64,000 nt of DNA, from positions 3,686 through 67,685 of IMG/VR virus record IMGVR_UViG_3300045988_136686; one strand, 5' to 3'. The position numbers were made by a program, and so were the translations under genes. This stretch comes from a virus. A model generated the notes under the pieces. That model had not been told where the DNA came from. It saw nothing but the letters and a program-made list of their open reading frames with translations, and made no database searches. This document shows positions 228 to 14,152 of this stretch, in pieces; the first letter of the stretch is position 1, and the number at the start of each line of letters is the position of its first letter.

Positions 228-665
228 CTATATAAGGCATTCATCACTCATTGAAAGATAATCATTTTCAGTTAAAATAATACTGTCTAATAATTTTATA
301 TCGAACAATTTCAATATATTTTTAAGGGAGTTAGTCATTTTTATATCCTCATTACTAGGGTTTTTGTTACCGCTTGGGTGATTATGAACGAATATGACAC
401 CAGCAGAGAGAGTCTCAATAGCATATTTGGCAATCAATCTTTTGTCAACTGGTGTTCCGCATATTCCTCCTTGAGAGATTTTAGCATACCCGGTTATATT
501 GTAGGCTTTGTTCATCAATATAATGAATGCACTTTCGTAAATAAGAATATCTTCATGATAGAACTTTCTTGCGAAATTAGCAGAGTCTATAGAAGAATAA
601 ACTTTGACAACCTCAAAATCTTGTTTTTTTGCTGTTATGCTGTATTCTACTGCTTTCTTTTTCAT
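228..665 (-). CDS. radC: RadC-like JAB/MPN domain protein
   Basis: 145 aa ORF. C-terminal motif VFVHNHPSGNKNPSNEDI is typical of RadC/JAB proteins. Confidence 0.8.
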   Translation of the reverse strand: MKKKAVEYSITAKKQDFEVVKVYSSIDSANFARKFYHEDILIYESAFIILMNKAYNITGYAKISQGGICGTPVDKRLIAKYAIETLSAGVIFVHNHPSGNKNPSNEDIKMTNSLKNILKLFDIKLLDSIILTENDYLSMSDECLI

Positions 666-1638: not shown

Positions 1639-3150
1639 TCATAAAAAGTCTTTTAGTAATTCTTCGTCACTAATAAAATCATAGTCAAATGGATAAAATG
1701 TATTAGCAAGTGCATCCATATAGTCTGGCGAACGTTTGATACGTTTCTTGATTTCTTCTTTCGGTTCAATTATAATCCGTCCATCGCTTTGGAACTTCCA
1801 GTGTGTTTCGGTTGCTTCCTCCATGAGTTTGTCACAAGGGGGAATAGCCGCCCCAAAACCGTTCTTAGGGTTAAGCCAATCACGTAAAGACCAATAGCAG
1901 TAAGCTCGCATATTGGCAAATTCATATTGTCCGGTAAGGTCATGCAAGCCTTTTGCACTCTCGGAATACTTACAAGAATAAACATTCCTATATCCGAGTT
2001 CTTCCAATCGGGAATATACTCCAGCTCCTTCACCTATTGTATCGATGTACGCTTTGGATTTTTTGTCAGAAAGATATATGATGTGCATTCCTGCGACATG
2101 CATGTGGTCCGCTTTTCCAGCAGATTGGTGAACTTCAAATTTAGGGACATAGTTTCCGTATCGAGGGCAAAGTACACTTTCATCTCGACCCATACCAGCA
2201 ACATCAGAACCAATCTTACATGATTTAGACGGTGTAAAACCTTCTTCTTGTAAACGATTCCAATTATCATTTGCAATCTCTATCCATTCATACGGAATAA
2301 GTACATCTTCGGAGACTTTTGGAAACATACCAAGTACCTTGACACGAAAAAGGTCATTAGGTCGGTATAGACCATCTTCCCACTTAAAATCACCTTCTCC
2401 TTCATTAAAATCTGCCTTCTGAATGGGAGAACACCAATTTATCACTTTATCTTTTACCCATTCATAATCTACTTGACCGGGAATGACTAATTTCCTTTTG
2501 ACTACATTCTCTGCATTGAGTGAGTTTAACCGGAATTTCGCAAATCGATTGGATTTCATGGCTCGTGCGGCATAACCCGTAGTTATGTTAGGATTAAACA
2601 CGATGAGTAAACGGGAATTTCCCTGTAAGTTACCTTCAATAGCATTATATGTTGCTTCTGAAATACCCGATGCTTCAGTAACGACGAACATTGTATTCAC
2701 AGCGTGGAACCCAGACCATGCTTCAGTATTGTCATCACCAGCCTTAAACCCCGTCAGGAACCATTCTTCATAATTAGTCCTTATTCCGGCAGATAGAAGT
2801 CGACCGGGTAAAAATTCTGCATTTCTAAATAGTCGTGAGATTTCAGGCATCATGATGTTATATACCTGCCTTGCTGTTGGTGCAGTCATGGCAATTTTTG
2901 TATTCTTGGATAATTTGCCATCTTTCCAACGTGGAGTGAGGTACATAAAACACATAGCAGCACATGCTGCAACGAAGTCCTTACCACGAGCTGTACCTGA
3001 TGCAACAGCTGTCATAGGATTGTGCTGGACAGAGGATATGATAGATTGCTGCTCGCTGTCTAAACGAACCTTCAAAACATCACGGCAAAACCTATTCCAG
3101 TCTTCTATCCATGACTTTAAGTAGCGTATGTCCTTGCGTACATGGCTCAT
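1639..3150 (-). CDS. terL: terminase large subunit
   Basis: 503 aa. Walker A-like ASGTARGKD, Walker B-like MFVVTEASG, and nuclease-domain acidic motifs IGSDVAGMGRDES, IDTIGEGAG and SPDYMDAL. Confidence 0.85.
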   Translation of the reverse strand: MSHVRKDIRYLKSWIEDWNRFCRDVLKVRLDSEQQSIISSVQHNPMTAVASGTARGKDFVAACAAMCFMYLTPRWKDGKLSKNTKIAMTAPTARQVYNIMMPEISRLFRNAEFLPGRLLSAGIRTNYEEWFLTGFKAGDDNTEAWSGFHAVNTMFVVTEASGISEATYNAIEGNLQGNSRLLIVFNPNITTGYAARAMKSNRFAKFRLNSLNAENVVKRKLVIPGQVDYEWVKDKVINWCSPIQKADFNEGEGDFKWEDGLYRPNDLFRVKVLGMFPKVSEDVLIPYEWIEIANDNWNRLQEEGFTPSKSCKIGSDVAGMGRDESVLCPRYGNYVPKFEVHQSAGKADHMHVAGMHIIYLSDKKSKAYIDTIGEGAGVYSRLEELGYRNVYSCKYSESAKGLHDLTGQYEFANMRAYCYWSLRDWLNPKNGFGAAIPPCDKLMEEATETHWKFQSDGRIIIEPKEEIKKRIKRSPDYMDALANTFYPFDYDFISDEELLKDFL

Positions 3151-3497
3151 TCCTCATCATCAGGCAATTCTTGCATCAGTTTCTCAAATGGATTGACATT
3201 CACGTTTTGCTCAACGCTTTCCACATAGCCACGTTTTTTGCCTTTTGTCTTGAGATGGAATATGATGGCTGTAAGGTTGCCTGCGTTAATCTGTTCAAGC
3301 AATTTGCTTTCAGAAAAATCGATTAAACTCTCATCAACATCTGACAGTAGTTGATTCAATTTAGGGTACTTTTTACGCCATGCGGTAAATGTATTTCGGT
3401 CTATGCCGAGAGAAGTACACGTAGATGATATATTACCAGCTTTCTTAGTATAAACCTCAGCGACCTTTTCATACGGGATTTTCTTGTATCGTGCCAT
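3147..3497 (-). CDS. putative terminase small subunit (HTH)
   Basis: 116 aa. Overlaps the terL start by 4 nt. HTH-like segment ISSTCTSLGIDRNTFTAWRKKYP. Confidence 0.6.
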   Translation of the reverse strand: MARYKKIPYEKVAEVYTKKAGNISSTCTSLGIDRNTFTAWRKKYPKLNQLLSDVDESLIDFSESKLLEQINAGNLTAIIFHLKTKGKKRGYVESVEQNVNVNPFEKLMQELPDDEE

Positions 3498-3551
3498 ATC
3501 ACAGTTTTTAAATGTTGAATTTGCTTATTTCTATTTGTTTTTAATTATCAG

Positions 3552-4406
3552 TTAGAACGCACTGTTTACGACCATTCGTATAAAATCATTGTACTCTATG
3601 CCATGCTCTTTCATGCACTTAGCCATATATCCATTGGGAGAAAGTCCGGGAATCATATTAATATCTATCACATATGGTACTTGGTTGGACATTCTGAAAT
3701 CTATCCTAAGGTAATGTTTAGCACCTACCGCTTCAAACACTTTCTTCGCAATTCTGTCAAGTAATTCATCTTTGCAGGCAGATGCACTGAAGCTGTAATT
3801 TCGCTTTGTTTCATCCGTTTGTATGCCATCCGTGTTATTGGCATTCGTAAAAGCAGAGTATGTCTTTAAAGAGCTATCTTTCTTTGAGTATATTACAGAA
3901 GTGGTTATATCACTCCCGTCAATGTAACGTTCTATCATCGGTTCTATGCCTTGTTTGTGAAGAAATAGACATTTATTTATGACCTGCGACTTAGTAAAGC
4001 ATATACTGTTTGAATCTATTCCGACGCTATTCTCGCCAAACTTTGGTTTAACGAAATATGCGAAACCTCTTTCCACATCATTGGGACCAACTGTCAGAGG
4101 AAACGGAATGCCACATTTGTACAATTCGGATTTAACAGCTTCCTTATCATGAGTAAGATAGTTAGTCTGCGAAGATTCAAGCGTGGACGCAAATCCGATT
4201 CTTTCCTGAGCTTTTCTAACATGTTGATTGATGTTCTCGTCTCTTGCCCGAATAAAAGCAATATCCTCTTTCGTGAGAAAAGAGAAATCATCATCCTTAT
4301 CCGCACAAAATATGTCTATTTTACCATCGGCAAAGGCTTTCTTATAATACTTATACGTGGGAAAGCTGCCGTCTTCCTCTTTACGATTCGCTATTACCCA
4401 AATCAT
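3552..4406 (-). CDS. ATP-grasp ligase (D-Ala-D-Ala ligase-like)
   Basis: 284 aa. Segments FVKPKFGENSVGI, ERYIDGSDITTSVI and YLRIDFRM...YVIDINMIPGLSP resemble the ATP-grasp C-terminal domain. Confidence 0.7.
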   Translation of the reverse strand: MIWVIANRKEEDGSFPTYKYYKKAFADGKIDIFCADKDDDFSFLTKEDIAFIRARDENINQHVRKAQERIGFASTLESSQTNYLTHDKEAVKSELYKCGIPFPLTVGPNDVERGFAYFVKPKFGENSVGIDSNSICFTKSQVINKCLFLHKQGIEPMIERYIDGSDITTSVIYSKKDSSLKTYSAFTNANNTDGIQTDETKRNYSFSASACKDELLDRIAKKVFEAVGAKHYLRIDFRMSNQVPYVIDINMIPGLSPNGYMAKCMKEHGIEYNDFIRMVVNSAF

Positions 4407-5103
4407 TGTCTTTCTGTATTTCGGTTAAACGTTCCTTTGCTAGATCAAGCAGCTTAGAAAAGCATATTGCAGGAGACTTGATGTTGAATTGGTCTCCTAT
4501 TTCTTTCTGCAACTTAAGCAGCATCTCCTCATTAGGTTCATGGTCTGCAATCAATACGATGTCGCTTTTCTTCGCCTGCTCCCTTATGTCCCCAAACAGA
4601 CTGTCTAGTGCATCAAACGAGTTTGGGTAAAGGATAATGGAGAAAGTGAAAGTCTCCTTCATCACGGATATATCTATACCGTTCGTATCAACCGGTGTAA
4701 TTTCGTCAATGTTGATGTGGGCGAACTTCTTGAACTCGATGGTCTGAATTTGTTCAAATAATTTCTTCAAGATATTCCTGTTATCTTCTCCATGTAAGGA
4801 GTTATGGGAAAGCTGGATTGCTATAATCTCATCTTTCGTAAGCTCATCTTCATCGCAATAAAGAATGCCTATCTTGGAGTAACGCAGTTTCTTACAAGCC
4901 CTCAATCTGTGATGCCCGCTTATCATCACAAATCTTCCGTCTTGTTTTTTGTAACAACACGGGACGCTACTCAATCCGGATTTGCCAATATTATCGCATA
5001 GGGCGGCAAAATCCTCTCCAGTCATTTCGTTGGCGTTCATTTCCGCCTCATCTATAAGGCTGATGGCCACCTGATCGTATTTCCATCTATTTTCGTTGCC
5101 CAT
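4381..5103 (-). CDS. ParB/Srx-like N-terminal domain protein
   Basis: 240 aa. Motif VMISGHHRLRACKKL (DGxHR-type ParB nuclease/NTPase fold). Overlaps both neighbouring genes. Confidence 0.6.
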   Translation of the reverse strand: MGNENRWKYDQVAISLIDEAEMNANEMTGEDFAALCDNIGKSGLSSVPCCYKKQDGRFVMISGHHRLRACKKLRYSKIGILYCDEDELTKDEIIAIQLSHNSLHGEDNRNILKKLFEQIQTIEFKKFAHINIDEITPVDTNGIDISVMKETFTFSIILYPNSFDALDSLFGDIREQAKKSDIVLIADHEPNEEMLLKLQKEIGDQFNIKSPAICFSKLLDLAKERLTEIQKDNDLGNSES

Positions 5104-7165
5104 TTTCTAATAGCTTATGGTATTTTTCTATTACTTCCTTATAGCTTGAATACACACCAAGTTGCCCGCTATAAGCAAGATATGATGATGTGCAATGCTC
5201 TTTCACTTTTGTATAAACACCCCGATATTTCATACTTACCGGTTTGTGGGTATAAGCACAGCTGATAACCTTCTCCACTAACTTGTGCATAGAGCGGCTC
5301 AATATTCTTTGTACTTCTTTTGTTTGTATGCAGTACAAAATAAACTTACTAAGTTTAGGAATTGCATTATTCGTGCAAAAATCAGTAAGTTGAAACAGAT
5401 CATACCCATTGTGTTGTGGTAACGTGAATCCAAAACCACCCAGCGTGTACTTGCCGTACATGACTACAAAAGGATATGTGGATGAACTTACAGAATCCAC
5501 TTTCTTGACATACTTCTTCTGCAATCCTTTCAAGTAACCCGGTTTTACCTTCAATATCCTTAGAGCATCCGGGTTATCTATACCCAAATCATCAGGCGGA
5601 ACTATCTCATCAACGGTATCAATACTGGATGAGTATGAAGTGTTTGACTGACTGTTTATGCAAGGTTTGTTGCAATAAAGATAACGACCAGCCGACCACC
5701 TTTCGCCTCCTGAAGAATTGAAGATAGCAACTTTGTGCATATTACTAAGGTATGGACTATTGCTGATGAAGTAAAACCAAGTGTCTTTTGGCAACCTTTC
5801 CACCAATTCGTAATAGTCATTCCTTATAACGGGAATGTCCGATTCCATATCACTGTTTTCCCGTATCAGCTTGAACGCCCTCTTTAAGAACTTATCCTTA
5901 CCATAGTTAAAATAGATGACTTTCTTTCCATCAATTGCTTCTTGAAGAGAGCCTCGATGGTATTCACAGGTAGTAAGCAGCGACATAAGCCTCTCACTTG
6001 ACTTCTCCGTGTATTCAATGGACTCTTTTGCCTTATACTTTATCGCATCGAGAATAGCATCGTTCCTTGCAGACTGGCTCATACAGAACTTCTGCAAGCC
6101 ATTTGCATACAGAGCCAACGCAAGCTGCCTTGATGGTGTCTTGTTGTTGAACTGCTCCAGCCATTCCAGACTGTTGTTATACGTCAGCGACATTTTTCCA
6201 TTGGATAGCAAATACAGCAAATGGCAATATGGGTCTTGACTAAAAATAGACACATCCATTTTATCCATGAAAAACAACTCATAGTTATATAAAAAGCTGT
6301 TTACTATGCATACCTCTTTGTGCCCATGTTCTTTCATTGCCTCATATAGAGCCGAAGCCTGTTTGGAATTGAATGCTATCGGTCTTGTTTGAAACGTTTC
6401 TATAGCATTGTATGGGTTGCCTTGATAGAGTAGCGGAATAAGCTCCTTAGGTGTTTCGTATTTCAGTCCGGTAACTTTTTTGAACTCCTCATAGGTATGT
6501 AGTAATTGAAAGTCATTCAACGTATGATTTATGGCATAATAAAACATTCTATACGTAGAGTAAACGCAATTCATCGCCATATAAAAATCTGTTGTAGCAT
6601 GATAGGTGCGAAACTCTATAGTCTTAGTCTTAAAATATGATGATATGTTAATTGCGTGACGGATAAAACCTTTCTTTGAATTGTTAGTAAATAATTCTCT
6701 TATGTCGTCAAATGTTTTGGATTGCAAAACACCATTATAATATTTTTCAGTAGGAATCGGCATGAGATTGAAAACCATTTCGTCCCATTCTGAGATATTC
6801 GCATACTTTTTGATGAACGGATAGCATACATAAAAGAAAAGAAAGATATTTTTTAATTGCTCCACCGACAAATCCCCAGCATAGATATGGACATGTGTAT
6901 AGACGCTCCATTTGATTACACCTCCTGCATTTACCATAGATTCATATACACTTTTCAATTCGTGCAAATCTTTCAAGCAAAGTCTTAGCGGTGGAGTATT
7001 AATTTCGCCACCAAATCTCTTATTACACGTCCCGTCTGTGTTAACAATATCCTCATCCTTACTCCATGAATATCCTGTTGGCAATGACACTTTACTACGG
7101 TCAAGATTACACATCTCAATCTCGACACCAAATGTACGTGTTTTTATGTCTGTGCTAATATCCAT
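5087..7165 (-). CDS. putative amidoligase (GS-like) with large uncharacterised C-terminal region
   Basis: 692 aa. N-terminal RTFGVEIEMC motif of the putative-amidoligase family. I recognise nothing in residues ~270-692. Confidence 0.5.
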   Translation of the reverse strand: MDISTDIKTRTFGVEIEMCNLDRSKVSLPTGYSWSKDEDIVNTDGTCNKRFGGEINTPPLRLCLKDLHELKSVYESMVNAGGVIKWSVYTHVHIYAGDLSVEQLKNIFLFFYVCYPFIKKYANISEWDEMVFNLMPIPTEKYYNGVLQSKTFDDIRELFTNNSKKGFIRHAINISSYFKTKTIEFRTYHATTDFYMAMNCVYSTYRMFYYAINHTLNDFQLLHTYEEFKKVTGLKYETPKELIPLLYQGNPYNAIETFQTRPIAFNSKQASALYEAMKEHGHKEVCIVNSFLYNYELFFMDKMDVSIFSQDPYCHLLYLLSNGKMSLTYNNSLEWLEQFNNKTPSRQLALALYANGLQKFCMSQSARNDAILDAIKYKAKESIEYTEKSSERLMSLLTTCEYHRGSLQEAIDGKKVIYFNYGKDKFLKRAFKLIRENSDMESDIPVIRNDYYELVERLPKDTWFYFISNSPYLSNMHKVAIFNSSGGERWSAGRYLYCNKPCINSQSNTSYSSSIDTVDEIVPPDDLGIDNPDALRILKVKPGYLKGLQKKYVKKVDSVSSSTYPFVVMYGKYTLGGFGFTLPQHNGYDLFQLTDFCTNNAIPKLSKFILYCIQTKEVQRILSRSMHKLVEKVISCAYTHKPVSMKYRGVYTKVKEHCTSSYLAYSGQLGVYSSYKEVIEKYHKLLENGQRK

Positions 7166-8294
7166 ATCTTGTTTCGCAAAGTTCTTCTATATACTTTTCG
7201 CAACCTAATCTCTGGATAGTTCTTCCGTTTTCTCTAAAATCTTCTCCTAAAGCTACACTTGAAATATTGATGAGAGATGTTGTAATGGGAACGTCTACGC
7301 CTATTCTTTTGGCAATGCTTTCCAACAGGATAAGACCTTGTGAAACATCTTCCGTGATGTATCTTGAACGCACTGAAGTAGGACTTATCGCCCTATCTTT
7401 GGATTCAGAGTATTCGTAAAAACTCTTTATAGGGTCACCGAGAAAACCTCCTGCGACAAAAATATCGATAGGATTACAACCTAATCGTTCTAAAACCTTG
7501 CGTTTCTCTTTATCCAAATCCAGCATAACCTTAAAGGTCGCATCATTACCACGGGCGTATGCTTCCCTATACATACAGAAGTTTCCCTTGCTGTATTCTA
7601 TTCTTGGAATGCTCATTATGGATCCAACGGTATGCAAAACCATATTAGGGTTGAGTAATGCGGATTCCAATACTGAGTATTCGTTGCTGAAACCTTTATA
7701 TAGTTGACGGATTCTATCCATACACTCCCCTGCTATTTCTTTTTGGAAGATAGACAATGGGCTTCTTGTAAGCCTGCACCCAACCCGGAATACGACTTCT
7801 CCGGGGACATCATCTTCTTCTATTCGTCCTTCAAGATATGGGCCAGCAGTTTCCACTATGACTGGCATTGAAGAACAGTGCTTTTTGAAGTAGAAAGATG
7901 ACATATAACTGCAAATGCAAATTACAATCTGGCTCCCGTTGAGAAACTTGCTTATTCTCTCGATAAGATTTTCGTGATAGGTACTTTGAATTGTCACAAT
8001 GACGACATCAGCTTTTGTTACTTTGCTAATGTCATGAGATACTTCATTGATTACAGCAGTTCTATAACTACAGTTCTCTTTCAGCAATACACGGTTATTG
8101 TTCTGACGGATTTTGTAAAAAACTGATTCTTTCGAGTGGGAGGTTTTAATCAAAGAAACGTCGTGTCCGCCAATAGATAAATCTGCTGCTATGGCTACAC
8201 CTACATTACCACACCCTAACACTGTAATTTTGATAGGATCATTAGAGTTCTCTTGTCCTTGATTTAAAGGATTTGTTATCGTTTTTTCGTCCAT
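7155..8294 (-). CDS. NAD(P)-dependent opine (octopine/nopaline-type) dehydrogenase-like protein
   Basis: 379 aa. Rossmann motif KITVLGCGNVGVAIAADL. C-terminal RYITEDVSQGLILLESIAKRIGVDVPIT resembles the opine dehydrogenase helical domain. Confidence 0.6.
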   Translation of the reverse strand: MDEKTITNPLNQGQENSNDPIKITVLGCGNVGVAIAADLSIGGHDVSLIKTSHSKESVFYKIRQNNNRVLLKENCSYRTAVINEVSHDISKVTKADVVIVTIQSTYHENLIERISKFLNGSQIVICICSYMSSFYFKKHCSSMPVIVETAGPYLEGRIEEDDVPGEVVFRVGCRLTRSPLSIFQKEIAGECMDRIRQLYKGFSNEYSVLESALLNPNMVLHTVGSIMSIPRIEYSKGNFCMYREAYARGNDATFKVMLDLDKEKRKVLERLGCNPIDIFVAGGFLGDPIKSFYEYSESKDRAISPTSVRSRYITEDVSQGLILLESIAKRIGVDVPITTSLINISSVALGEDFRENGRTIQRLGCEKYIEELCETRYGY

Positions 8295-8515
8295 ATATTT
8301 AAGTTGTATATAACTTCATATACATTTTGTGCTAAGTCTGCCAAGCGTATTCCCGACAGGACTAAACACAAATCCATCATTTTTCAAGCTACTTGCAAGA
8401 ACACTTATGCAATTCTTCGGCTTCTTTCAGTCGTGTCAGATAGCAATTACTATCACCCCGTAAACTGCACAAGCTTTAATGTTCTTGCTTTTGCTTATCG
8501 CTACTATAAGGGTTG

Positions 8516-8585
8516 AGCGGAAACAGGGAATCGAACCCCACTCTTTGGCTGGAATGCCAACGCTCTGCCGATGAGCTATTTCCGC
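8516..8585 (-). tRNA. tRNA, Gly(UCC)-like, with short anticodon loop
   Basis: Reverse complement is GCGGAAATAGCTCATCGGCAGAGCGTTGGCATTCCAGCCAAAGAGTGGGGTTCGATTCCCTGTTTCCGC plus T. It forms a cloverleaf with T-loop TTCGATT. The GCG acceptor start and U73 fit Gly identity. The anticodon stem TTGGC/GCCAA encloses only 6 nt (ATTCCA). Confidence 0.7.
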
Positions 8586-8663
8586 AATATGGGCAGCCTG
8601 CAAACCGTTTATCAGAATTTTCACTGCCCTTCTTTGTACTTTGGTCGTTATTTCTTATCTCTG

Positions 8664-8736
8664 AGGTTGAAGTGGGATTCAAACCCACGAATAACGGTTT
8701 TGCAGACCGTTGCGTTAATCACTTCGCCATTCAACC
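8664..8736 (-). tRNA. tRNA-Cys(GCA)
   Basis: Reverse complement is GGTTGAATGGCGAAGTGATTAACGCAACGGTCTGCAAAACCGTTATTCGTGGGTTTGAATCCCACTTCAACC. Anticodon loop is CTGCAAA between stems ACGGT/ACCGT. Confidence 0.85.
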
Positions 8737-8816
8737 AAACCAATGCTGTCAAACCACCGCTTGCTTGGCAAATCTGACAGCATCCCATCAAACGCTATTG
8801 ATGGTTGGCATTATTT

Positions 8817-9221
8817 TCAAAACAAACTCGCTTGTTCATAATTGGGCTCTTTCTTCTCAACAACTCCAAATTCTGTGATTTCAATACCAGTATTTTCTGT
8901 GATCCATTTTGCCAAAATATGGCGATGGCAGAAATCACCCGGTTTTTCGTAGCAACAAAGAGCAACGTCTTTTCCTCCGCTTAACATTTCAATTTGTTTC
9001 ACGACTTGGTTCGCATCTTGGCTTGCCAATATTCTGTCGTAAAGCTTAAGATACTCTTCTCGAGAACAAGGTCCACTTACCATATAGCGGGTGGGACAAA
9101 CATTCAACATTTGCGGAATACCAGCTATAAATCTGGGTTTTCCGATTGCTACGCAAATCATATTAACTCCCGCCTCTTTCAGTTTTCGACTATTACCGAA
9201 ATACGATGTAAAAATCTTCAT
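8817..9221 (-). CDS. DUF488-like protein
   Basis: 134 aa. MKIFTSYFGN start and the ALCCYEKPGDFCHRHILAKWI motif resemble the DUF488 family. Confidence 0.55.
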   Translation of the reverse strand: MKIFTSYFGNSRKLKEAGVNMICVAIGKPRFIAGIPQMLNVCPTRYMVSGPCSREEYLKLYDRILASQDANQVVKQIEMLSGGKDVALCCYEKPGDFCHRHILAKWITENTGIEITEFGVVEKKEPNYEQASLF

Positions 9222-9298
9222 TTTTTGTTCTTTTTACGATGTAAATATATAAAAAAGTATATAAAATTCATGCACTTTTAGTGCTAAAATTGTCTAAA

Positions 9299-9550
9299 CT
9301 ACCACGTTTTTATTATTTCTATGACTTTTTCATATTCTCCAGCGTGTAACAATGACGCTTCGGTGTGGAAATTTATATCAGTTAATCGATATTCTATAAG
9401 TAAACAGGTATATTCATCACCAATTTTGCGATGGTTTTGATGTTTCTTGGCAAGTGATTCCAATTCTGTACAAGATAGACAGTAGTGATTCTTGCGATTA
9501 AGATTCCGCATCTTATTAACATCTTCTTCTTTCAAATCTTCGTATGTCAT
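9299..9550 (-). CDS. hypothetical protein
   Basis: 83 aa ORF in a co-oriented gene string. Confidence 0.5.
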   Translation of the reverse strand: MTYEDLKEEDVNKMRNLNRKNHYCLSCTELESLAKKHQNHRKIGDEYTCLLIEYRLTDINFHTEASLLHAGEYEKVIEIIKTW

Positions 9551-9553
9551 GGC

Positions 9554-9703
9554 TTAATCCTCCTCAAATTCGTCTTCATATACAAAAACATGTTTACCAC
9601 TTCCACAAATCTCGACTTCCCATTTATGCATGTTCGGCCAATATTCGATTAGAATTATGTTTCTATAGCCTTTATATGGCTCTTTCAATGTTGCTGTTCT
9701 CAT
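9554..9703 (-). CDS. hypothetical small protein (start trimmed to internal ATG)
   Basis: The track ORF 9554..9799 overlaps the upstream gene by 85 nt. The ATG at 9703 follows the upstream stop at 9715. Confidence 0.4.
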   Translation of the reverse strand: MRTATLKEPYKGYRNIILIEYWPNMHKWEVEICGSGKHVFVYEDEFEED

Positions 9704-9714
9704 TGCTCTTAATT

Positions 9715-10143
9715 TTAAAATGTCGGATCTATATAGTGATTTTGATAATGCAACATAAGCAGAACTCCATCTTTGTAATGATGCCCTTCTGCTACCCAAT
9801 ATCCATTCCTTCTTTTGGTGAACACTTTGGGTGCTCCTTCCAATTCTGGTAGGACTTCATATTCGCTGGCATAATAGTCTATACATTTGGTTTGATTGAA
9901 AGTAACCTCAATCTTGCATGGAGAAATAATTTTAGTAACTGTTGCCGCTCGTTTATCCGAGTAATAGCAGACCGTACAGCCAAGTCCAACTTCGGGTACG
10001 AGATTTTTGATTGCGTCCAACTTCGCTTTTTCCTTTTGCTCTTGCCAATCTGAGAATTTTATACCGCCGGGATATTTGCGACTTTCTATTTCGTGTAGAA
10101 TAGCAAAACTCTCCTTGCTTGTTAATTTCTTTGATATTTCCAT
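9715..10143 (-). CDS. hypothetical protein
   Basis: 142 aa ORF. Confidence 0.55.
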   Translation of the reverse strand: MEISKKLTSKESFAILHEIESRKYPGGIKFSDWQEQKEKAKLDAIKNLVPEVGLGCTVCYYSDKRAATVTKIISPCKIEVTFNQTKCIDYYASEYEVLPELEGAPKVFTKRRNGYWVAEGHHYKDGVLLMLHYQNHYIDPTF

Positions 10144-10154
10144 TGCTATGTATT

Positions 10155-10439
10155 TTATCCGTTATACGTTGATGTTATTTCTTCTGCACGGAGTTCTTTT
10201 CTTAACTCACCGTTCCTATATATTCTCACGGCTACTATTCTAACTGTATCGGATAGGAAACGCCCGCAGTCATTAGCTAGCTTAACTTGTAATTGAATAG
10301 CTTTTGCTAAATTTTTAGTACGCTTTCTTATGGTTTTCTTGAATCCGAAAACATAATCTTCGGTATCGATTTCGAACTGGTAGGTGTCAGAGTGTAATAT
10401 CTGGTTAAGTTCGGATGTCATTTGTTCTATCTTTTCCAT
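10155..10439 (-). CDS. hypothetical protein
   Basis: 94 aa ORF. Confidence 0.5.
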   Translation of the reverse strand: MEKIEQMTSELNQILHSDTYQFEIDTEDYVFGFKKTIRKRTKNLAKAIQLQVKLANDCGRFLSDTVRIVAVRIYRNGELRKELRAEEITSTYNG

Positions 10440-10455
10440 TGCTATTTTGTTATTA

Positions 10456-10698
10456 TTAGAAAAACAAATTAATTATCTCTTCTTTTGTATGGTAATTAAG
10501 CCAGTTATTTGCATTCTCTGTTGCTTTCTCAACACTTCTATACTTTAATCCAGATGATGCAATATATAAGCAAATCGTACGTTTGTGCATTTTCAACACT
10601 TGTTCCTTTTTAGGCTTAGTTATAGTTACTTGATTAGTACGTTTATTAAACTTACAAAACCGATTATTTAAAGTTTCTTCTTTTGTAATAGCCTTCAT
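10456..10698 (-). CDS. hypothetical protein
   Basis: 80 aa ORF. Confidence 0.5.
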   Translation of the reverse strand: MKAITKEETLNNRFCKFNKRTNQVTITKPKKEQVLKMHKRTICLYIASSGLKYRSVEKATENANNWLNYHTKEEIINLFF

Positions 10699-10788
10699 TG
10701 CTCTTATTGTTTAAGTGGTTATTTTGGATATATAAAGATACAAATAATATATTGAATACCAATGAGTTATGTCTTTTATTTCATGCGC

Positions 10789-11022
10789 TTAAACTTTGTT
10801 TAACTTTTTGTCTCTCAGCGACTTTCGGTCAAGTATCTGTGCAAACAAACCAGTTGCAAACACTATTTCACGTCCATACTTATCCTTGCATCGAATGTAT
10901 ATATCTGCATCTTCACCAGACATATAAAGCTCATACAGATTATTGTATGGACGAATGCAATCACGGAACATTTCCGATGCCGTCTTTGACTTACGATAAC
11001 CACTTCTGCCCATACTTTTCAA
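10789..11022 (-). CDS. hypothetical protein
   Basis: 77 aa ORF. Confidence 0.45.
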   Translation of the reverse strand: MKSMGRSGYRKSKTASEMFRDCIRPYNNLYELYMSGEDADIYIRCKDKYGREIVFATGLFAQILDRKSLRDKKLNKV

Positions 11023-11266
11023 ATAATAATGATTTACTTTTCTCTATCTCCTTGTCTGTGTCGATTCCGAGTTGTCGATAGAAAACAGAATTACCGGATA
11101 GGCATTCATGTGCTATCTTCAATGTTCTACGTTCTTCTTTGGAGAAACCAACTCGAAAAGTAGAGAATATAGCTAATGCTTCTTTCAAATAGCCGGAGTG
11201 GAGTAGGGATATAGCTTTACTTGTTTTGGTTTCCATAAGGGTAAATTTCGATGTCTTCAAAATCAT
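10991..11266 (-). CDS. hypothetical protein
   Basis: 91 aa ORF. An internal ATG at 11236 (METKTSK) is an alternative start. Confidence 0.45.
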   Translation of the reverse strand: MILKTSKFTLMETKTSKAISLLHSGYLKEALAIFSTFRVGFSKEERRTLKIAHECLSGNSVFYRQLGIDTDKEIEKSKSLLFEKYGQKWLS

Positions 11267-11393
11267 CGTCAGTAAGGGCGATTTCTTCTGTGTTTATCAT
11301 TTCTTCTACTTTCTCATGAGCGGAATCCATGTTTTCTGCTTCTACCTCCACTACCTTCGAGTAGGTTTCGATTATTCTGAATTTGCATTTCAT
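11217..11393 (-). CDS. hypothetical acidic small protein (below track threshold)
   Basis: My translation gives MKCKFRIIETYSKVVEVEAENMDSAHEKVEEMINTEEIALTDDDFEDIEIYPYGNQNK. The ATG overlaps the upstream TGA (ATGA). Confidence 0.4.
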   Translation of the reverse strand: MKCKFRIIETYSKVVEVEAENMDSAHEKVEEMINTEEIALTDDDFEDIEIYPYGNQNK

Positions 11394-11650
11394 TCTATAT
11401 TCCCTTTATTTAGTTTTGAATTTTGCAATCCTGCATGATACCCATCAATCCATATCAACAATTCTGTGGGTTTCAGATACCCGCTTATCCTGTGACATGG
11501 AATGCCCCCTTCTATTACTCTATCCCCGGCAAATGATTCGTCGTGTATTACGAACGCATAATACCCATAAGAGAATGACGAAGCGGTTAGATGCATTCGA
11601 TTAGCATGACAGTACTTTTCTAATTGTTTTAATGCTTCTTTTTGTGTCAT
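11390..11650 (-). CDS. hypothetical protein
   Basis: 86 aa ORF. Confidence 0.5.
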   Translation of the reverse strand: MTQKEALKQLEKYCHANRMHLTASSFSYGYYAFVIHDESFAGDRVIEGGIPCHRISGYLKPTELLIWIDGYHAGLQNSKLNKGNIE

Positions 11651-11838
11651 AACTGATGATTTATAGATTTTCGTTGATTTTCTTTTCTGTCCGTTTAATG
11701 AATCGTTTAATCATATCTTCTAACTCATTCCTTAAATCGTCCTTGTCAAGATATGAGCGGAAAGTTTTCGATTGTAAAATATCGATGATAGCATACGATT
11801 TTTATCCGTTAGATTTAACAATGATTATTCGTCACTTA

Positions 11839-12480
11839 TTACCCCCATAATTTTACTGCAAGATCATAATTCTTTTGAGCTTCATTTACTGCTTTTTTGG
11901 CATAAGTAAGAGTGTAGGAGTGTTCACGTGGATATTTGCCTGACTTTACACCTTCATGATATTCTTTGGCTTCTTCCAGCTTGTGCGCATAAAAGTCAAT
12001 ACTTTCCGGCATAGATAGGTTGATGGTTGTAGCACGCTTGTCCCAGTATTCGGCTTCTCTTTCATGTTCTGTTGCTTTGTCGCTAAATTCAACGCTTTTA
12101 CCCATGTTTCTCCAAGCATCCGCTATTGCTTTTCTGTGTCGTCTTTCGCTATGATGTCCTATTTTAATAGGTTCTCCAAGTGAAAGAAAATCTCTGTCCT
12201 TATTTGACTTTTCGAAATATACATGACTTTTTTTATTTGCTGATACAGACCATTCACGTCTACGTTCGGCTCTACGTTTTGCCCATTCTTGTACGTTGAA
12301 TCCGTCAGCTCTTACGATGGAGTAATAATAGAATCCGTCACGCTCAAATATCAGATTAAAAACGATACTTTCATTCTCTTTTCCATACTTGGTTGTAACT
12401 AGAATTTCCTCACCTCTTTCGTGCTTTTCTTCGCACTTTGCCAAAAATACGTTTGGCGCAAACTTGTAATATGTGTTCAT
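11839..12480 (-). CDS. DUF3560-like protein
   Basis: 213 aa. Motif GEPIKIGHHSERRHRKAIADAWRNMGKS resembles the conserved GHHSE core of DUF3560. Confidence 0.55.
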   Translation of the reverse strand: MNTYYKFAPNVFLAKCEEKHERGEEILVTTKYGKENESIVFNLIFERDGFYYYSIVRADGFNVQEWAKRRAERRREWSVSANKKSHVYFEKSNKDRDFLSLGEPIKIGHHSERRHRKAIADAWRNMGKSVEFSDKATEHEREAEYWDKRATTINLSMPESIDFYAHKLEEAKEYHEGVKSGKYPREHSYTLTYAKKAVNEAQKNYDLAVKLWG

Positions 12481-12516
12481 TGCTCTTATGTATTTGCAGG
12501 GAAAAAGTCCTGCTGG

Positions 12517-13269
12517 TTATAAATTAAATATGCCAATAGCTTTCGCTATAGTTAATACTTCTTTTTTAGTCTTTACTGTATTTGGGATAATTGTCCCATT
12601 AGAAGACTTAGAATAAAGATTGCCACAAACTAATTCGTAATCGTACCCTATCACTTGCTTTTTACGAGCAAATCCTACACAGCCATATCTTATAGTCCAT
12701 TCAGAACCACCACCAAATGGCATATAATTACCCTTTTCGTCTTGCCATGAACTTTGATGCCGTCTGGCAGATAAGAATCGAGTACCTTCTTGATTATACA
12801 ATAAAACTTCATACGCATTATTAATTATCTTCACACTCAATTTTGCACGTTCTTCTCTTTTGGCAAGAGTGGCTTGTGCAATGGTTAGCGCACGTGCCAT
12901 GATTTCTTCTGGTGTGTCTTCTTGCTTGGTGGAGATGTAGCCGCCTGTGGTACGTACTTCGTGAAGGATTTGTTTGACCCCTTTCTTGAATTGTTTGGCT
13001 ATTGGCTTGCGGCTTTGCATAAGGACTTCGTATAAACCACCTTCGGTTAGGAACCAAACTTGTTGGTTTCCACCGGGGGTCGGAATAATGTTCCGACCCT
13101 TTTCATCATCATCTACAGATGCAACCAATTTGTTAAGGCTTGTTTTGTCGTAATCGATGCATTCTGCAATCTCTCTTGCAAGGAACATGGGATTTTCTGC
13201 TGTTCCGTAAACTGTGAATTGGTGTCCAAGCAATTCTGTTTGTTTTAGGACTTGAATTTGGGCTGCCAT
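12517..13269 (-). CDS. Bro-N domain antirepressor-like protein
   Basis: 250 aa. N-terminal FTVYGTAENPMFLAREIAECIDY...QQVWFLTEGGLYEVLMQSRKPIAKQFKKGVKQILHEVRTTGGY matches the Bro-N pattern. Confidence 0.75.
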   Translation of the reverse strand: MAAQIQVLKQTELLGHQFTVYGTAENPMFLAREIAECIDYDKTSLNKLVASVDDDEKGRNIIPTPGGNQQVWFLTEGGLYEVLMQSRKPIAKQFKKGVKQILHEVRTTGGYISTKQEDTPEEIMARALTIAQATLAKREERAKLSVKIINNAYEVLLYNQEGTRFLSARRHQSSWQDEKGNYMPFGGGSEWTIRYGCVGFARKKQVIGYDYELVCGNLYSKSSNGTIIPNTVKTKKEVLTIAKAIGIFNL

Positions 13270-13813
13270 AAACTTGTAGCATTAAGTTGTATGATAGGTA
13301 GCAAAAAGCGGCCGCCATATACGCTGCTACAAGTTAATGGACTTCACCTCGAAAGGCTAATCTTTACTTACGTATAGGAGGCCGCCAATATATAAAAGTA
13401 TAGGCATAAAAAAAGCCCAACTTTCTATTGAGCAAATTAACCGCTTGCCCTGCGAGATGATTAAGTTCATCAACTTGTAGCATTACAAAAGTATTGAATT
13501 TTACGAGGTAATGCTAATTATTGGGCACAAAATTAGAGCATGGAATCTTGAAAGTGTATGAATTTCATACATAATTCAATATTATTAACCTTTGAGGGCT
13601 ATTATACGATTTCCTAAATCAGTGAATCCTAAGGCGAAATTCCGTTTAATGCAAAATTACAATATTCACAAATAATGAAGTGCACCACCAGAAAACGTAA
13701 AAAGAAAGCGATGAAAAATTAATCTCACCGCTTTTTATATGCCTCAAAATAGACGTGTGTAAACAAATGCCAAATTAGAGTTGTACAAACATCAATTCTT
13801 TAAATCAAAGGAA

Positions 13814-14152
13814 TTATCCGTATTTTATCGAGCAAGCCACAAACAAGGCCATAGCGCCGAATATGGCACTTGCTACTGCGATTATGGTAGTTATAATCCA
13901 TTTCCAGTCTATGGGATTGCGTAAGTTAGGATTGGTGGCAAAATAAATTTTTCCATATTTCGTTATGCGGACATCTTCAAGTTCATGCCCCTCGTTCCAT
14001 AGACCTTTGACAAGACCTAATCTTTCCAGCGAGTCTACGCACGAAATGAATATATGGTGCGGATAAGTGTTTGGGCAGACAATCCCGCTGCTGATTAAAC
14101 GCAACACTTGCTTCTCCTGTTTTGATAGCTTGATTTGCTTCATGGTTGCCAC
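13814..14152 (-). CDS. hypothetical protein with C-terminal transmembrane helix
   Basis: 112 aa. Hydrophobic WIITTIIAVASAIFGAMALFVAC tail. Confidence 0.5.
   Translation of the reverse strand: MATMKQIKLSKQEKQVLRLISSGIVCPNTYPHHIFISCVDSLERLGLVKGLWNEGHELEDVRITKYGKIYFATNPNLRNPIDWKWIITTIIAVASAIFGAMALFVACSIKYG

Follow-up and report, generated by a model that had tools for sequence, protein, structure and literature searches.

A gene cassette on the minus strand, adjoining the terminase genes, most probably serves to decorate the DNA of the phage itself with a group derived from amino acids. It was analysed in the window, i.e. the whole stretch of 64,000 nucleotides of viral DNA, and in related loci. 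A Mom-like, Gly-tRNA-dependent base modification, an extension by ATP-dependent ligases and a capping by an opine dehydrogenase before packaging are given about an even chance as the underlying chemistry, which is predicted throughout. If this applies, the decoration is proposed to shield the packaged DNA from host restriction.

Gene order, conserved core and accessory genes

All features described below are located on the minus strand. The ORF list contains four successive reading frames at positions 7155-8294 (379 aa), 5087-7165 (692 aa), 4381-5103 (240 aa) and 3552-4406 (284 aa), with overlaps of 11, 17 and 26 nt between neighbours. The final frame stops 54 nt ahead of the small terminase subunit gene (terS, 3147-3497; phrog_309, 1.9e-9), which itself overlaps the gene of the large subunit (terL, 1639-3150; phrog_2, 1.2e-26). 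An earlier note on this DNA had described this arrangement, and its coordinates agree with the ORF list. The motifs it quoted are all present in the translations: GCGNVG, RYITEDVSQGL and VDVPIT in the first protein, FGVEIE in the second and ISGHHRLRA in the third. Its four family assignments were recovered by profile searches with Octopine_DH (8.7e-28), Amidoligase_2 (3.8e-17), Dala_Dala_lig_C (7.9e-14) and, for the ParB-like protein, PHROGs. The limits 3552-8294 set for the cassette were too narrow, as a core DUF488-N3a gene and the tRNA genes, the latter having been missed, fall outside.

The same gene order was found again in hundreds of metagenomic and prophage loci, and hence the arrangement is not due to chance. 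A census comprised 193 related loci coding for the 692-aa protein, a three-domain enzyme, in 15 clusters (clades) at 60% identity. These loci are dominated by two large clades, and the following counts do not represent independent events. The ParB-like gene directly follows the three-domain enzyme gene in 192 of the 193 loci, across all 15 clusters. A DUF488-N3a gene is located upstream in 181/193 loci, and a glycine-type tRNA is carried by 154/193 loci from 7 of the 15 clusters. The opine dehydrogenase (ODH) gene is present in 75/193 loci, all of them among the 95 that form the 60%-identity cluster of the window, and is absent from the relatives' loci L004-L007. The ATP-grasp gene occurs in 97/193 loci and 4/15 clusters. 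The conserved core thus consists of DUF488-N3a, the tRNA(s), the three-domain enzyme and the ParB-like gene. The four genes treated as a unit in the earlier note are not the conserved unit, and ODH and ATP-grasp are dispensable accessories. In other clades, the replacement accessory enzymes are a GNAT, a PLP enzyme, a lysine-aminomutase-like radical SAM enzyme or an AlaDH-like dehydrogenase. Every variable accessory gene falls in amino-acid-handling enzyme families. In two loci, an RtcB tRNA ligase was observed in place of the accessory genes.

The terminase linkage proved real. In Bacteroidota phages, the cassette is located directly upstream of terS-terL, with terS following the cassette in 170 of 174 loci and terL present in 153 of the 174, many of the remaining loci being cut by contig ends. 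Owing to this position, the cassette is regarded as a ParB-terminase locus. Such an adjacency to DNA-packaging genes is seen in many gut Bacteroidota phages.

A two-domain form of the enzyme, composed of the Dam-like and the GNAT-like domain without amidoligase, is encoded together with a ParB-like protein and usually with DUF488 in Gordonia phage Clawz and in prophage-like regions of Desulfovibrionaceae, Planctomycetota, Chloroflexota, Bacillales, Mesorhizobium, Methanobacterium and others. These two-domain systems are the widespread ancestral form. The earlier note knew of no described phage module of this composition, and likewise no paper on such a module or pathway was found in the literature; the protein families of the module are, however, already catalogued in Pfam and PHROGs.

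The three-domain enzyme, its partners and the accessory enzymes

The first domain of the 692-aa protein (approximately aa 1-235, positions 6461-7165) is a glutamine-synthetase-like amidoligase (Amidoligase_2, PF12224; 63.4 bits versus a cut-off of 22). E15, E17, G52, T57, P59, H93, R169, T182, E184 and R186 are invariant among 23 proteins down to 21% identity. The acidic, histidine and arginine residues of a GS-like active site are thereby conserved (E15, E17, H93, R169, E184, R186). Foldseek matches of the three-domain protein include the Pup ligase PafA. The following 400 or so residues, considered unplaceable in the earlier note, correspond to two curated Pfam families, DAM-like-phage2 and GNAT-phage-like.

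The second domain (approximately aa 236-520, positions 5606-6460; DAM-like-phage2, 2.1e-87) has a Dam-like fold. In a Foldseek search with the full model, E. coli Dam structures were the best PDB matches, though weak ones (E about 0.05, TM 0.37-0.40). The sole hhalign match to Dam, also weak, aligned CLVEPFV of Dam with CIVNSFL, and the E values for Dam range overall from 0.05 to 0.09. The SAM-binding FxGxG loop is absent from the domain, where the position of VEPFVGAG in Dam is occupied by VNSFLYNY with zero glycines, and no (D/N)PP(Y/F/W) motif is conserved among 23 sequences. While the amidoligase and GNAT domains keep invariant residues down to 21% identity, there are hardly any in the Dam-like domain. 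Judged from its sequence, the domain is probably catalytically dead, and a function as DNA-binding or base-flipping module is proposed. The resemblance to Dam, indicated by the Pfam name and by weak structural and profile matches, appears to hold at the fold level only.

The third domain (approximately aa 521-692 plus the stop codon, positions 5087-5605; GNAT-phage-like, 1.1e-37) shows a Mom-like GNAT fold. Its AF2 model reached a pLDDT of 93.5. In a Foldseek search against the PDB, Mom of phage Mu (8bv8_B) ranked third among more than 600 GNAT matches (E 4.9e-4), with the highest query TM score of the list (0.50). Ranks 1 and 2 were the CoA-dependent acetyltransferases Naa50 and Naa60; N-terminal acetyltransferases match as well as Mom does, which counts against the Mom-like reading. 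A structural search of the BFVD placed a phage Mom at rank 20, and the viral matches include Mom and likely Mom-nuclease fusions. Among 64 sequences, G576, S644, K646, Y647, R648 and Y665 are invariant, while the CoA-binding (pyrophosphate) motif Q/RxxGxG/A is absent from the domain consensus. At the sequence level, the hhalign comparison with Mom was non-significant (E 0.38), and the short local alignment placed no conserved residue of the domain on R111 or S124, which are essential for catalysis by Mom. The domain is proposed to act as an aminoacyl or acyl transferase.

The ParB/Srx-like partner protein (240 aa, 4381-5103) belongs to phrog_7405 (5e-69) and is a full-length homologue of Clawz gp30 (6e-22). 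PHROG ParB families match it at 5e-12 to 1e-7. Membership in the ParB fold is based on these families, since Pfam ParB_N (PF02195; E 0.044, 14.3 versus 26.3 bits) and TIGR00180 (21.9 versus 58.45) remained below their cut-offs. Across 173 sequences, the residues S62-G63-x-H65-R66 and S99-H100-N101 show a conservation of 97% or more. They comprise the GxxR motif (Box II or P-motif) within S62-G63-H64-H65-R66, in which G63 and R66 are 99% conserved in the same set. An identity as partition ParB (ParABS) was rejected, as the protein gave no Pfam match to an HTH domain and no ParA-like gene was present in the cassette neighbourhoods. The ParB fold also occurs in enzymes not acting on DNA, Srx and SerK, an observation counted against DNA modification. 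The first core gene (8817-9221) encodes a DUF488-N3a protein of 134 aa (Pfam DUF488-N3a, 5.3e-9). In an alignment of 150 sequences, conservation reaches 99-100% at C90, E92, C98-H99-R100 and E117. Clawz gp24 is a DUF488 homologue (7e-31 with an HMM built here), and DUF488-N3a is also present in many prophages with the two-domain form.

Two accessory enzymes of the window are proposed to perform tailoring reactions. The opine-dehydrogenase-family enzyme (379 aa, 7155-8294) reached 97.7 bits for Octopine_DH (cut-off 30) and 37.1 bits for an ApbA-type Rossmann N-terminus (cut-off 22.2), and its GxGxxG motif is GCGNVG at residues 27-32. Residues 24-365 match CENDH (PDB 1bg6) over the full length (7.9e-16). 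H221 is aligned with His202 of CENDH, and R311 and D316 with Arg324 and Asp329 of octopine dehydrogenase (OcDH); all three are 98-100% conserved in 54 sequences. The catalytic set of OcDH comprises His212, Arg324 and Asp329. Judged from these alignments, the catalytic set of ODH appears intact, and the enzyme is predicted to condense an amino acid reductively with a 2-oxo acid.

The Ddl-like ATP-grasp ligase (284 aa, 3552-4406) scored 52.1 bits for Dala_Dala_lig_C (cut-off 24). Alignments to PDB Ddl structures are limited to residues 113-282 (3r23, 1e-12). K120, E159, R234, D236, D248 and N250 are conserved, and the ATP/Mg residues (Lys; R-x-D; D/E-x-N) are present. A full-length Ddl equivalog was rejected, because the best NCBIfam Ddl model, with a cut-off of 243 bits, gave 64.5 and the protein showed no Pfam match to Dala_Dala_lig_N, the N-terminal domain of Ddl.

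Cassette tRNAs

Two tRNA genes are located between the DUF488-N3a gene and the ODH gene. The tRNA-Cys(GCA) at 8663-8736 was detected by ARAGORN and by Rfam (tRNA, 66 bits). This second tRNA is variable, being Cys in the window and Phe, Ser or canonical Gly (Gly-CCC) in relatives. Loci with this Cys tRNA show the order DUF488, Cys tRNA, odd tRNA, ODH and three-domain enzyme. The odd tRNA at 8515-8585 is of the glycine type (ARAGORN; Rfam tRNA, 50.5 bits). ARAGORN assigned no anticodon name and returned '(tc)'; in the fold, a 5-bp stem closes a 6-nt anticodon loop, AUUCCA. Glycyl-tRNA synthetase (GlyRS) recognizes G1-C72, C2-G71, G3-C70, U73, C35 and C36 as identity elements. These are retained in the window's glycine-type tRNA, which reads GCGGAAA...TTTCCGC-T and has G1-C72, C2-G71, G3-C70, U73 and CC in the loop. 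On account of its 6-nt anticodon loop, this tRNA should stay out of translation, and a role as non-decoding glycyl donor is proposed.

The DUF488-to-enzyme interval contains 264 tRNAs (0.95 per kb) versus a single one in the remaining 2.46 Mb of the loci. Among 271 cassette tRNAs, 198 are glycine-type and start with GCG, nearly all of these ending in CGC-T. The 6-nt-loop type of the window occurs in two protein clades, in 78 loci altogether. The distinct glycine-type sequences number 73, and no more than 17 of them appear canonical. The oddities include the 6-nt anticodon loop, A33 or C33, A34, a TGC T-loop and a D-loop without GG; anticodon loops vary by clade (6-nt loop, ACC, A33). With such features in about three quarters of the distinct sequences, decoding should be impaired. 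The TGC T-loop was found in about 60 cassette tRNAs of related loci. The window tRNA has neither a TGC nor a TGT T-loop; it carries GGTTCGATTCC.

Several observations on the tRNAs count against a Gly-tRNA-dependent DNA modification. The D- and T-loops of the window's glycine-type tRNA are normal, leaving the 6-nt anticodon loop as sole oddity. An adjacent glycine tRNA is missing in 8 of the 15 clusters and in nearly all two-domain systems. Phages often group ordinary tRNA genes at one site.

Proposed pathway, alternatives and related systems

The earlier, tentative suggestion that the product could decorate DNA around packaging time fits the Dam-like domain, the Mom-like GNAT domain, the dedicated ParB protein and the position in a ParB-terminase locus. 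The cassette would represent a late-expressed, packaging-linked phage DNA hypermodification system, in which DUF488-N3a belongs to the core and is given no step. Initially, the host glycyl-tRNA synthetase would charge the phage glycine-type tRNA. The probably dead Dam-like domain may bind dsDNA and present a base, most likely adenine, assisted by the ParB-like protein as for the ParB-dependent phage thymine dioxygenases. Subsequently, the GNAT-like domain would take glycine off the tRNA and place it on the exocyclic amine of the base, in the manner of Mu Mom. The amidoligase domain may join, with ATP, an amino-acid carboxylate to the free glycyl amine, yielding a longer adduct. In this phage, the Ddl-like ATP-grasp ligase would attach a further residue, and the opine dehydrogenase would condense the terminal amine reductively with a 2-oxo acid and so cap it. 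Other clades may replace the tailoring by ligases and dehydrogenase with an acetyltransferase, a PLP enzyme, a radical-SAM aminomutase or an AlaDH-like dehydrogenase.

The foremost alternative, although an unlikely one, is a tRNA-independent DNA modification. The amidoligase would activate an amino acid as acyl phosphate and attach it directly to the base amine, the GNAT domain would use an acyl-CoA, e.g. for acetylation of the adduct, and the tRNAs would be ordinary translation helpers. This agrees with the invariant catalytic residues of the amidoligase, with Naa50 and Naa60 at the head of the Foldseek list, with the lack of a nearby glycine tRNA in 8/15 clusters and most two-domain systems, and with the canonical Phe, Cys, Ser and Gly-CCC tRNAs at the same spot. 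However, the amidoligase-free two-domain systems are ancestral and widespread, so that the GNAT domain must suffice for the primary reaction, and its consensus misses the CoA pyrophosphate-binding motif. The predominance of glycine-type tRNAs (198/271), about three quarters of the distinct sequences being non-canonical with decoding likely impaired, also argues against translation helpers.

Less likely again is a target other than DNA, i.e. a free opine, metallophore or short peptide, or a peptide-like tag on a virion, terminase or host protein. The earlier note had read two ligases plus a reductase in this sense, a logic that leaves the Dam-like domain and ParB without a role and has no advantage over other readings in accounting for DUF488 and the tRNAs. 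ATP-grasp and amidoligase are indeed carboxylate-amine ligases, ODH retains an intact opine-dehydrogenase catalytic set, and the ParB/Srx fold also works on proteins or free serine; but ODH and ATP-grasp are dispensable, and the invariant core consists of Dam-like and Mom-like GNAT domains with a ParB partner inside a ParB-terminase locus. Amidoligase_2 is reportedly tied to peptide-tagging or metabolite systems, and in the Pfam family description its classical neighbour is a GAT-like thiol peptidase or an AIG2-type cyclotransferase. Neither was found among the larger gene groups from DUF488 to terS in a census of 177 loci, which covered all but the smallest groups of unidentified ORFs. The least probable reading regards the tRNA as substrate instead of donor. 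The enzyme would modify or repair the phage tRNA, either with an amino acid in the anticodon loop, as in lysidine or agmatidine, or by acylation of the charged 3' end, for a special decoding or anti-defence role. No tRNA is nearby in many loci and in nearly all two-domain systems, and both the ParB partner and the constant terminase-adjacent position are left unexplained. The tRNA genes tightly adjoin the enzyme genes, and odd anticodon loops might require a special modification, but these loops differ between clades while the conserved residues of the enzyme stay constant. Some GNATs, TmcA and TacT, work on tRNA, and the RtcB ligase at two loci would also suit this reading.

The preferred Mom-like, Gly-tRNA-dependent modification has parallels in known systems. 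Mu Mom moves glycine from Gly-tRNAGly to N6 of adenine in dsDNA (PMC13219725). Mom, a late phage function as well, ranks high among the structures that match the C-terminal domain; both share the GNAT fold and lack the CoA-binding motif, which in the cassette refers to the domain consensus, and the glycine-type tRNAs of the cassette parallel the Gly-tRNAGly used by Mom. In contrast to Mom, the cassette GNAT family has an invariant SMKYRG motif of its own without significant sequence similarity, is fused to the Dam-like domain and amidoligase, and has obligatory ParB and DUF488 partners, whereas Mom operates without dedicated tRNA and tailoring enzymes. For the ParB-terminase (ParB-Tls) loci known from phages and prophages, a modification of DNA in the course of packaging was predicted (Iyer et al. 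2013, as cited in PMC4738411). In these loci, too, a ParB-like gene immediately precedes the terminase genes and is associated with a Dam-type domain, yet they encode active N6-adenine methylases, while the cassette's Dam-like domain has neither SAM loop nor DPPY and is fused to two catalytic domains. A ParB homologue activates a phage thymine dioxygenase (5mYOX) and is needed for its activity on dsDNA (PMC13229309). Both systems encode a small cognate ParB homologue without obvious HTH beside a post-replicative DNA-modifying enzyme, a putative one in the cassette; 5mYOX is, unlike the cassette enzyme, an Fe/2OG dioxygenase.

The TGC T-loop is a hallmark of staphylococcal non-proteogenic tRNAGly serving Fem transferases, which according to that study had been found in S. 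aureus and S. epidermidis alone (PMC7826273). As in the cassette, GlyRS identity elements are kept and combined with translation-disfavouring features, although the window tRNA has a normal T-loop and a 6-nt anticodon loop instead. The users of the staphylococcal tRNAGly, FmhB, FemA and FemB, are GNAT-fold aminoacyl transferases that target peptidoglycan, not DNA. In the CmoX/CmoY pathway, 5-carboxymethylcytosine is formed and then converted to a glycine amide, CmoY being the ATP-dependent ligase that adds glycine to the DNA base (PMC12783734). As proposed for the cassette, an ATP-dependent amide ligase extends a DNA-base handle with an amino acid there, and ParB-domain proteins co-occur in many of the contigs with that pathway. 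CmoY differs as an asparagine-synthetase-type, AMP-forming ligase, and its handle is a carboxylate from a Cx-SAM-dependent C5 transferase. The C5 methylase of the window carries FPC, not the SPPC motif of CmoX, and is unlinked to the cassette. CENDH (PDB 1bg6) and octopine dehydrogenase (PDB 3c7a) share with ODH full-length homology, GxGxxG and the aligned His, Arg and Asp. Known opine dehydrogenases act on free amino acids, whereas the cassette ODH is an optional member of a DNA-linked cassette.

Gene content and conservation of the cassette

The cassette contains four overlapping minus-strand genes upstream of the terminase genes. According to the ORF list, an opine-dehydrogenase-like protein (ODH, 379 aa, 7155-8294) is followed by a three-domain enzyme (692 aa, 5087-7165), a ParB-like protein (240 aa, 4381-5103) and a Ddl-like ATP-grasp protein (284 aa, 3552-4406). 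Successive overlaps are 11, 17 and 26 nt, and 54 nt separate the end of the ATP-grasp ORF from the ORF of the small terminase subunit (terS, minus strand, 3147-3497, 116 aa; PHROGs 1.9e-9). The latter is overlapped by the ORF of the large subunit (terL, minus strand, 1639-3150, 503 aa; PHROGs 1.2e-26). ORF list and PHROGs bear out this arrangement, which an earlier note had described from the sequence alone, and its family assignments were confirmed as well. Pfam returned Octopine_DH (8.7e-28) with a Rossmann N-terminus, Amidoligase_2 (3.8e-17) and Dala_Dala_lig_C (7.9e-14). The ParB-like protein matched PHROG ParB families to 5e-12 and the dedicated phrog_7405 at 5e-69, with Pfam ParB_N (0.044) below the cut-off. 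Comparison with known opine dehydrogenases revealed intact catalytic residues in the ODH (His221, Arg311, Asp316). A true Ddl forming D-Ala-D-Ala for the cell wall was ruled out by NCBIfam cut-offs. A defence system was rejected likewise: PADLOC was empty apart from a weak match of the DUF488-N3a protein (134 aa, minus strand, 8817-9221) to a candidate family.

Neighbourhoods of relatives were taken from precomputed Pfam annotations and from our own HMMs run over 254 loci. The count base was 193 loci with a full-length three-domain gene, forming 15 clusters at 60% identity; locus counts are not independent events, because two large clades dominate. A homologous ParB-like gene follows the three-domain gene in 192 of these loci and in all 15 clusters, and a DUF488-N3a gene precedes it in 181. 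The ODH gene, in contrast, occurs in 75 loci, all in the window's own cluster, and the ATP-grasp gene in 97 loci from four clusters. The four genes are thus not the conserved unit. In Bacteroidota phages the cassette always runs up to terS-terL. In the ParB-like family, two motifs, S-G-x-H-R (Box II) and S-H-N, are each kept by at least 97% of 173 sequences, and the DUF488 protein conserves C90, E92, C98-H99-R100 and E117. Conservation within each suggests that both are working proteins.

In other clades, these positions are occupied by different genes. A GNAT acetyltransferase was found in 72 loci, and a protein of ~295 aa with fold-type-III PLP-enzyme motifs in 75 loci; database matches of the latter are weak (D-ser_dehydrat 7e-4; PDB 3llx 0.18). 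Also found is a lysine-2,3-aminomutase-like radical SAM enzyme, accompanied by an additional N-terminal GNAT. Further slot genes encode an AlaDh_PNT-type dehydrogenase, a second ATP-grasp protein, another radical SAM enzyme and RtcB. Except for RtcB and small phage proteins such as YopX, the swapped-in genes encode amino-acid-handling enzymes. The RtcB tRNA ligase gene lies directly upstream of the three-domain gene in two related loci. In Muribaculaceae prophages, the AlaDh_PNT-type dehydrogenase gene follows the ParB gene; its product may have a function analogous to that of the opine dehydrogenase. These RtcB and dehydrogenase observations refer to L161 (6920-7996) and L188 (8699-9922).

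A genome scan with a single representative for each GTDB species located the three-domain form almost exclusively in Bacteroidota (Prevotella, Alistipes, Muribaculaceae, Paludibacteraceae, Tidjanibacter, Dysgonomonas, Capnocytophaga). Cassette-bearing prophages include those of Prevotella vespertina A2879, Prevotella sp. KH2C16, Muribaculaceae MF13079 and Capnocytophaga catalasegens. Two MAG contigs, from a Clostridia bin and a Planctomycetota bin, carry other labels. In the same scan, a two-domain form without amidoligase, accompanied by ParB and usually DUF488, was present in Desulfovibrionaceae, Syntrophus, Planctomycetota, Chloroflexota, Bacillales, Mesorhizobium, Limnobaculum, Nitrospirales, a Methanobacterium and a Paceibacterota bin. 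The cassette core is ancient and widespread. The cassette occurs in hundreds of IMG/VR contigs, with single protein clusters in more than 100 assemblies. Megablast of 3000-8400 yielded zero matches among 50,697 phage records, and the sole tblastn match in phage records was the GNAT part, in Gordonia phage Clawz. Clawz gp29 combines DAM-like-phage1 (2e-87) and GNAT-phage-like (6e-56) domains. Its gene overlaps that of gp30, a full-length homologue of the ParB-like protein (6e-22), and gp24 is a DUF488 protein.

Domains of the 692-aa enzyme

About 400 aa that the earlier note could not place were resolved by Pfam into two curated domains, the 'Phage DNA Adenine Methylase-like domain 2' (residues 239-418, 2.1e-87) and the 'Phage GNAT-like domain' (residues 534-684, 1.1e-37). 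The domain order is therefore amidoligase, Dam-like, GNAT-like. Sequence searches found no PDB match for this protein or for the DUF488 protein. Conservation was derived from an alignment of 23 full-length relatives, down to 21% identity. Invariant amidoligase residues are E15, E17, H93, R169, E184 and R186. The Dam-like domain of these sequences has nearly no invariant residue, and a (D/N)PP(Y/F/W) motif was not found in it. Its profile-to-sequence comparison with E. coli Dam was not significant (E 0.09); the single alignment set CLVEPFV(GAG) opposite CIVNSFL(YNY), a pairing which indicates that the SAM-binding glycine loop is absent. The middle domain is read as a catalytically dead Dam-like module. 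The full-length AF2 model is of moderate confidence (pLDDT 76). Its top PDB matches were E. coli Dam (E ~0.05, TM ~0.4), followed in Foldseek by PafA and GNATs; with all E-values at least 0.05, the model was used as consistency evidence only.

Within the C-terminal domain, G576, D595, F596, S644-M-K-Y-R-G649 and Y665 are invariant in the 23 sequences. Modelled alone from 64 diverse sequences, the GNAT-like domain gave a confident structure (pLDDT 93.5). Foldseek returned GNATs from the PDB, with Mu Mom (8bv8_B) at rank 3 (E 4.9e-4) and with the highest query TM of the list, 0.50. Phage Mom was also among the top matches in a viral structure library. Several 'endonuclease-like' phage proteins from this library matched as well and may represent the Mom-nuclease fusions described for jumbo phages. 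Because the profile-to-sequence comparison with Mom was not significant (E 0.38), the proposed link to Mom is structural and contextual.

tRNA genes of the cassette

Two minus-strand tRNA genes lie between the DUF488 and ODH genes (ARAGORN, Rfam). The tRNA-Cys(GCA) at 8663-8736 looks non-standard: its D-loop lacks GG and its T-loop reads GTTTGAA in place of GTTCGAA; the two sequence changes may form a covarying 19-56 pair. The second, at 8515-8585, is a glycine-type tRNA for which no anticodon can be named. Its acceptor stem is GCGGAAA/TTTCCGC with discriminator U, and its anticodon arm has a 5-bp stem and a 6-nt loop, AUUCCA. Bacterial GlyRS recognizes G1-C72, C2-G71, G3-C70, U73, C35 and C36. 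Stem, discriminator and loop sequence show that these identity elements are retained. A normal 7-nt anticodon loop is possible only by breaking a Watson-Crick pair. Since MFE folding of the ACC and CCC tRNAs over-extended the anticodon stems, the canonical tRNA included, only the 6-nt loop was treated as a robust structural anomaly.

Among 161 loci with both genes, the interval from DUF488 to the enzyme contains 264 tRNAs (0.95 per kb), versus one tRNA in 2.46 Mb for the rest of these loci. Glycine-type tRNAs account for 198 of 271 near the enzyme gene, and at least one is present in 154 of the 193 three-domain loci and in 7 of 15 clusters. Simple canonical checks were passed by 17 of 73 distinct glycine-type sequences, compared with 25 of 41 other tRNAs. 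Oddities of the glycine type include 6-nt anticodon loops, A33 or C33 for U33, and A34. About 60 tRNAs combine GTGC in place of GTTC in the T-loop with a D-loop lacking GG. In an Anaerolineaceae contig, a glycine tRNA also precedes a two-domain gene by 20 nt, and in Neobacillus one lies near another such gene. The cassette tRNAs may simply assist translation in the ordinary way and be grouped at one spot; 8 of 15 clusters and most two-domain systems have no adjacent glycine tRNA.

A replacement of TTC by TGC or TGT in the T-loop is the hallmark of the non-proteogenic tRNAGly species of staphylococci, poor binders of EF-Tu and ribosomes that supply the Fem transferases (PMC7826273). The TGC form is common to them and to the ~60 cassette tRNAs of relatives. 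According to the same paper, S. aureus and S. epidermidis were the only known sources of such species.

A further glycine-type tRNA is distant from the cassette (62745-62816, minus strand; GCG...CGC-U acceptor end, anticodon UCC, C33 for U33). ARAGORN calls it, although its Rfam score is below threshold. The gene runs into the end of ORF 62011-62781; it may serve as an integration site or be a further tRNA that does not decode.

Proposed pathway, significance and further genes

Mom moves glycine from Gly-tRNAGly onto adenine N6 in double-stranded DNA (PMC13219725). A phage thymine dioxygenase is activated on dsDNA by its cognate ParB homologue (PMC13229309), and CmoY is an ATP-dependent ligase placing glycine onto a DNA base (PMC12783734). 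ParB-terminase loci were predicted to modify phage DNA during packaging (Iyer et al., as cited in PMC4738411). From these precedents, a five-step model appears most economical. The phage tRNA would be charged by host GlyRS. A base, probably adenine, would be presented by the dead Dam-like domain with ParB help, and the GNAT-like domain would transfer glycine onto it. The amidoligase domain would then join a carboxylate to the glycyl amine, and lineage-specific enzymes would extend or cap the chain. In the window, the Ddl-like ATP-grasp protein would add a residue, and the terminal amine would receive a carboxyalkyl cap from the ODH. That DNA, at adenine, is the target and Gly-tRNA the donor is our inference, as are the step order and the biological purpose; domain content, conservation patterns, gene and tRNA linkage and structural resemblance are observed. 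That the cassette serves DNA hypermodification with tRNA involvement seems to us an evenly balanced proposition, and its specific chemistry is much less certain. Tentatively, and with more doubt than confidence, a dedicated non-translating glycine tRNA is proposed as glycyl donor for the Mom-like domain. A fused or linked ATP-dependent assembly line would build a short peptide- or opine-like chain on a DNA base immediately before packaging. Swaps of tailoring enzymes (D-Ala-ligase-like, opine/AlaDH-type dehydrogenase, acetyltransferase, PLP enzyme, aminomutase) would vary the chain between lineages. This proposal covers gut Bacteroidota phages and extends, with a simpler version, to those of many further phyla.

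Other routes were considered. The GNAT-like domain may use acyl-CoA, with primary attachment by the amidoligase; the Q/RxxGxG/A CoA-binding motif is absent from the consensus of the GNAT-like domain. The phage tRNA may be substrate instead of donor. The target may also be a protein or a free metabolite, in line with the opine or peptide logic of the earlier note. Two DNA-directed routes were rejected. In the CmoX idea, the window's own C5 methylase makes the carboxylate handle for the ligases; this enzyme carries FPC instead of the SPPC of CmoX, and its gene, at a distance of 22 kb, is not a conserved neighbour of the cassette. For the thymidine pathway, no hydroxymethylase, 5-HMUDK kinase or aGPT-Pplase was detected in the larger window ORFs scanned or in the neighbourhoods.

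The cassette is best filed as kin to Mom-type modification and ParB-terminase DNA-modification loci; its tRNA aspect potentially represents a new kind. In PHROGs, the enzyme family goes solely by the name 'amidoligase enzyme' (phrog_2443); Pfam has domain models. Literature searches returned no paper naming PF22556, PF22559 or their domain names, nothing on the function of DUF488, and only passing mentions of amidoligases with phage DNA modification. They also returned none on the domain fusion, obligatory ParB/DUF488 partners, swappable amino-acid enzymes or abnormal glycine tRNAs. If the tentative proposal is true, the tRNA would be the first non-proteogenic one known outside staphylococci and the first encoded by a virus, and the modification would form a new class of DNA hypermodification. 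Should the five-step model hold, a very common human-gut phage group would possess a new kind of DNA hypermodification, with consequences for restriction evasion, phage host range and DNA behaviour in sequencing and cloning. Charged tRNA as DNA-modification donor, just established for Mu Mom, would extend to a much larger, more elaborate enzyme family, with the first viral tRNA retained for non-ribosomal chemistry. For ParB-like proteins, this would be one more role in partnership with DNA-modifying enzymes, and DUF488 would for the first time be placed in a clear functional setting. The exchangeable tailoring enzymes hint at a natural toolkit for decorating DNA with varied chemical groups. 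The model is directly testable, because the core comprises only three genes and one tRNA.

The window also encodes an N6/N4 DNA methylase (25045-25800, minus strand) and a canonical C5 cytosine methylase with FPC and ENV motifs (30024-31112, minus strand), so the phage DNA is probably methylated as well. Directly downstream of the C5 methylase gene lies an unusually long tRNA-Arg(UCG) of 86 nt (31127-31212, minus strand; Rfam modest, 43 bits).

The gene order of 1639-20192 is unusual. The portal gene (18792-20192) is ~15 kb upstream of terS-terL, separated from them by the modification cassette and by genes of early type (Bro-N, DUF3560); in some relatives (locus L001), the portal gene directly follows terL. 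About 1.6 kb downstream of the portal gene, an 893-aa protein (14484-17165, minus strand) carries a C-terminal ADP-ribosyltransferase domain (ADPrib_exo_Tox, 7e-10) and is reminiscent of the injected toxin fusions, polyvalent or of MuF type, known from phages. With its Tad2-like (Thoeris anti-defence 2) domain (3e-18), a 166-aa protein (17959-18459, minus strand) is a candidate anti-defence gene product. Two paralogues of 364 and 386 aa (37976-39070 and 60363-61523, plus strand) correspond to type I restriction R subunits in the N-terminal domain alone (HSDR_N, 1e-14). Both genes are located in low-GC islands on the strand opposite to the phage genes and may be cargo or defence genes. Downstream of terL, a RadC-like JAB protein (228-665, minus strand, 3.6e-31) is conserved in many relatives. 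A 296-aa protein (32268-33158, minus strand) consists of seven LRV/HEAT repeats (1.5e-74).
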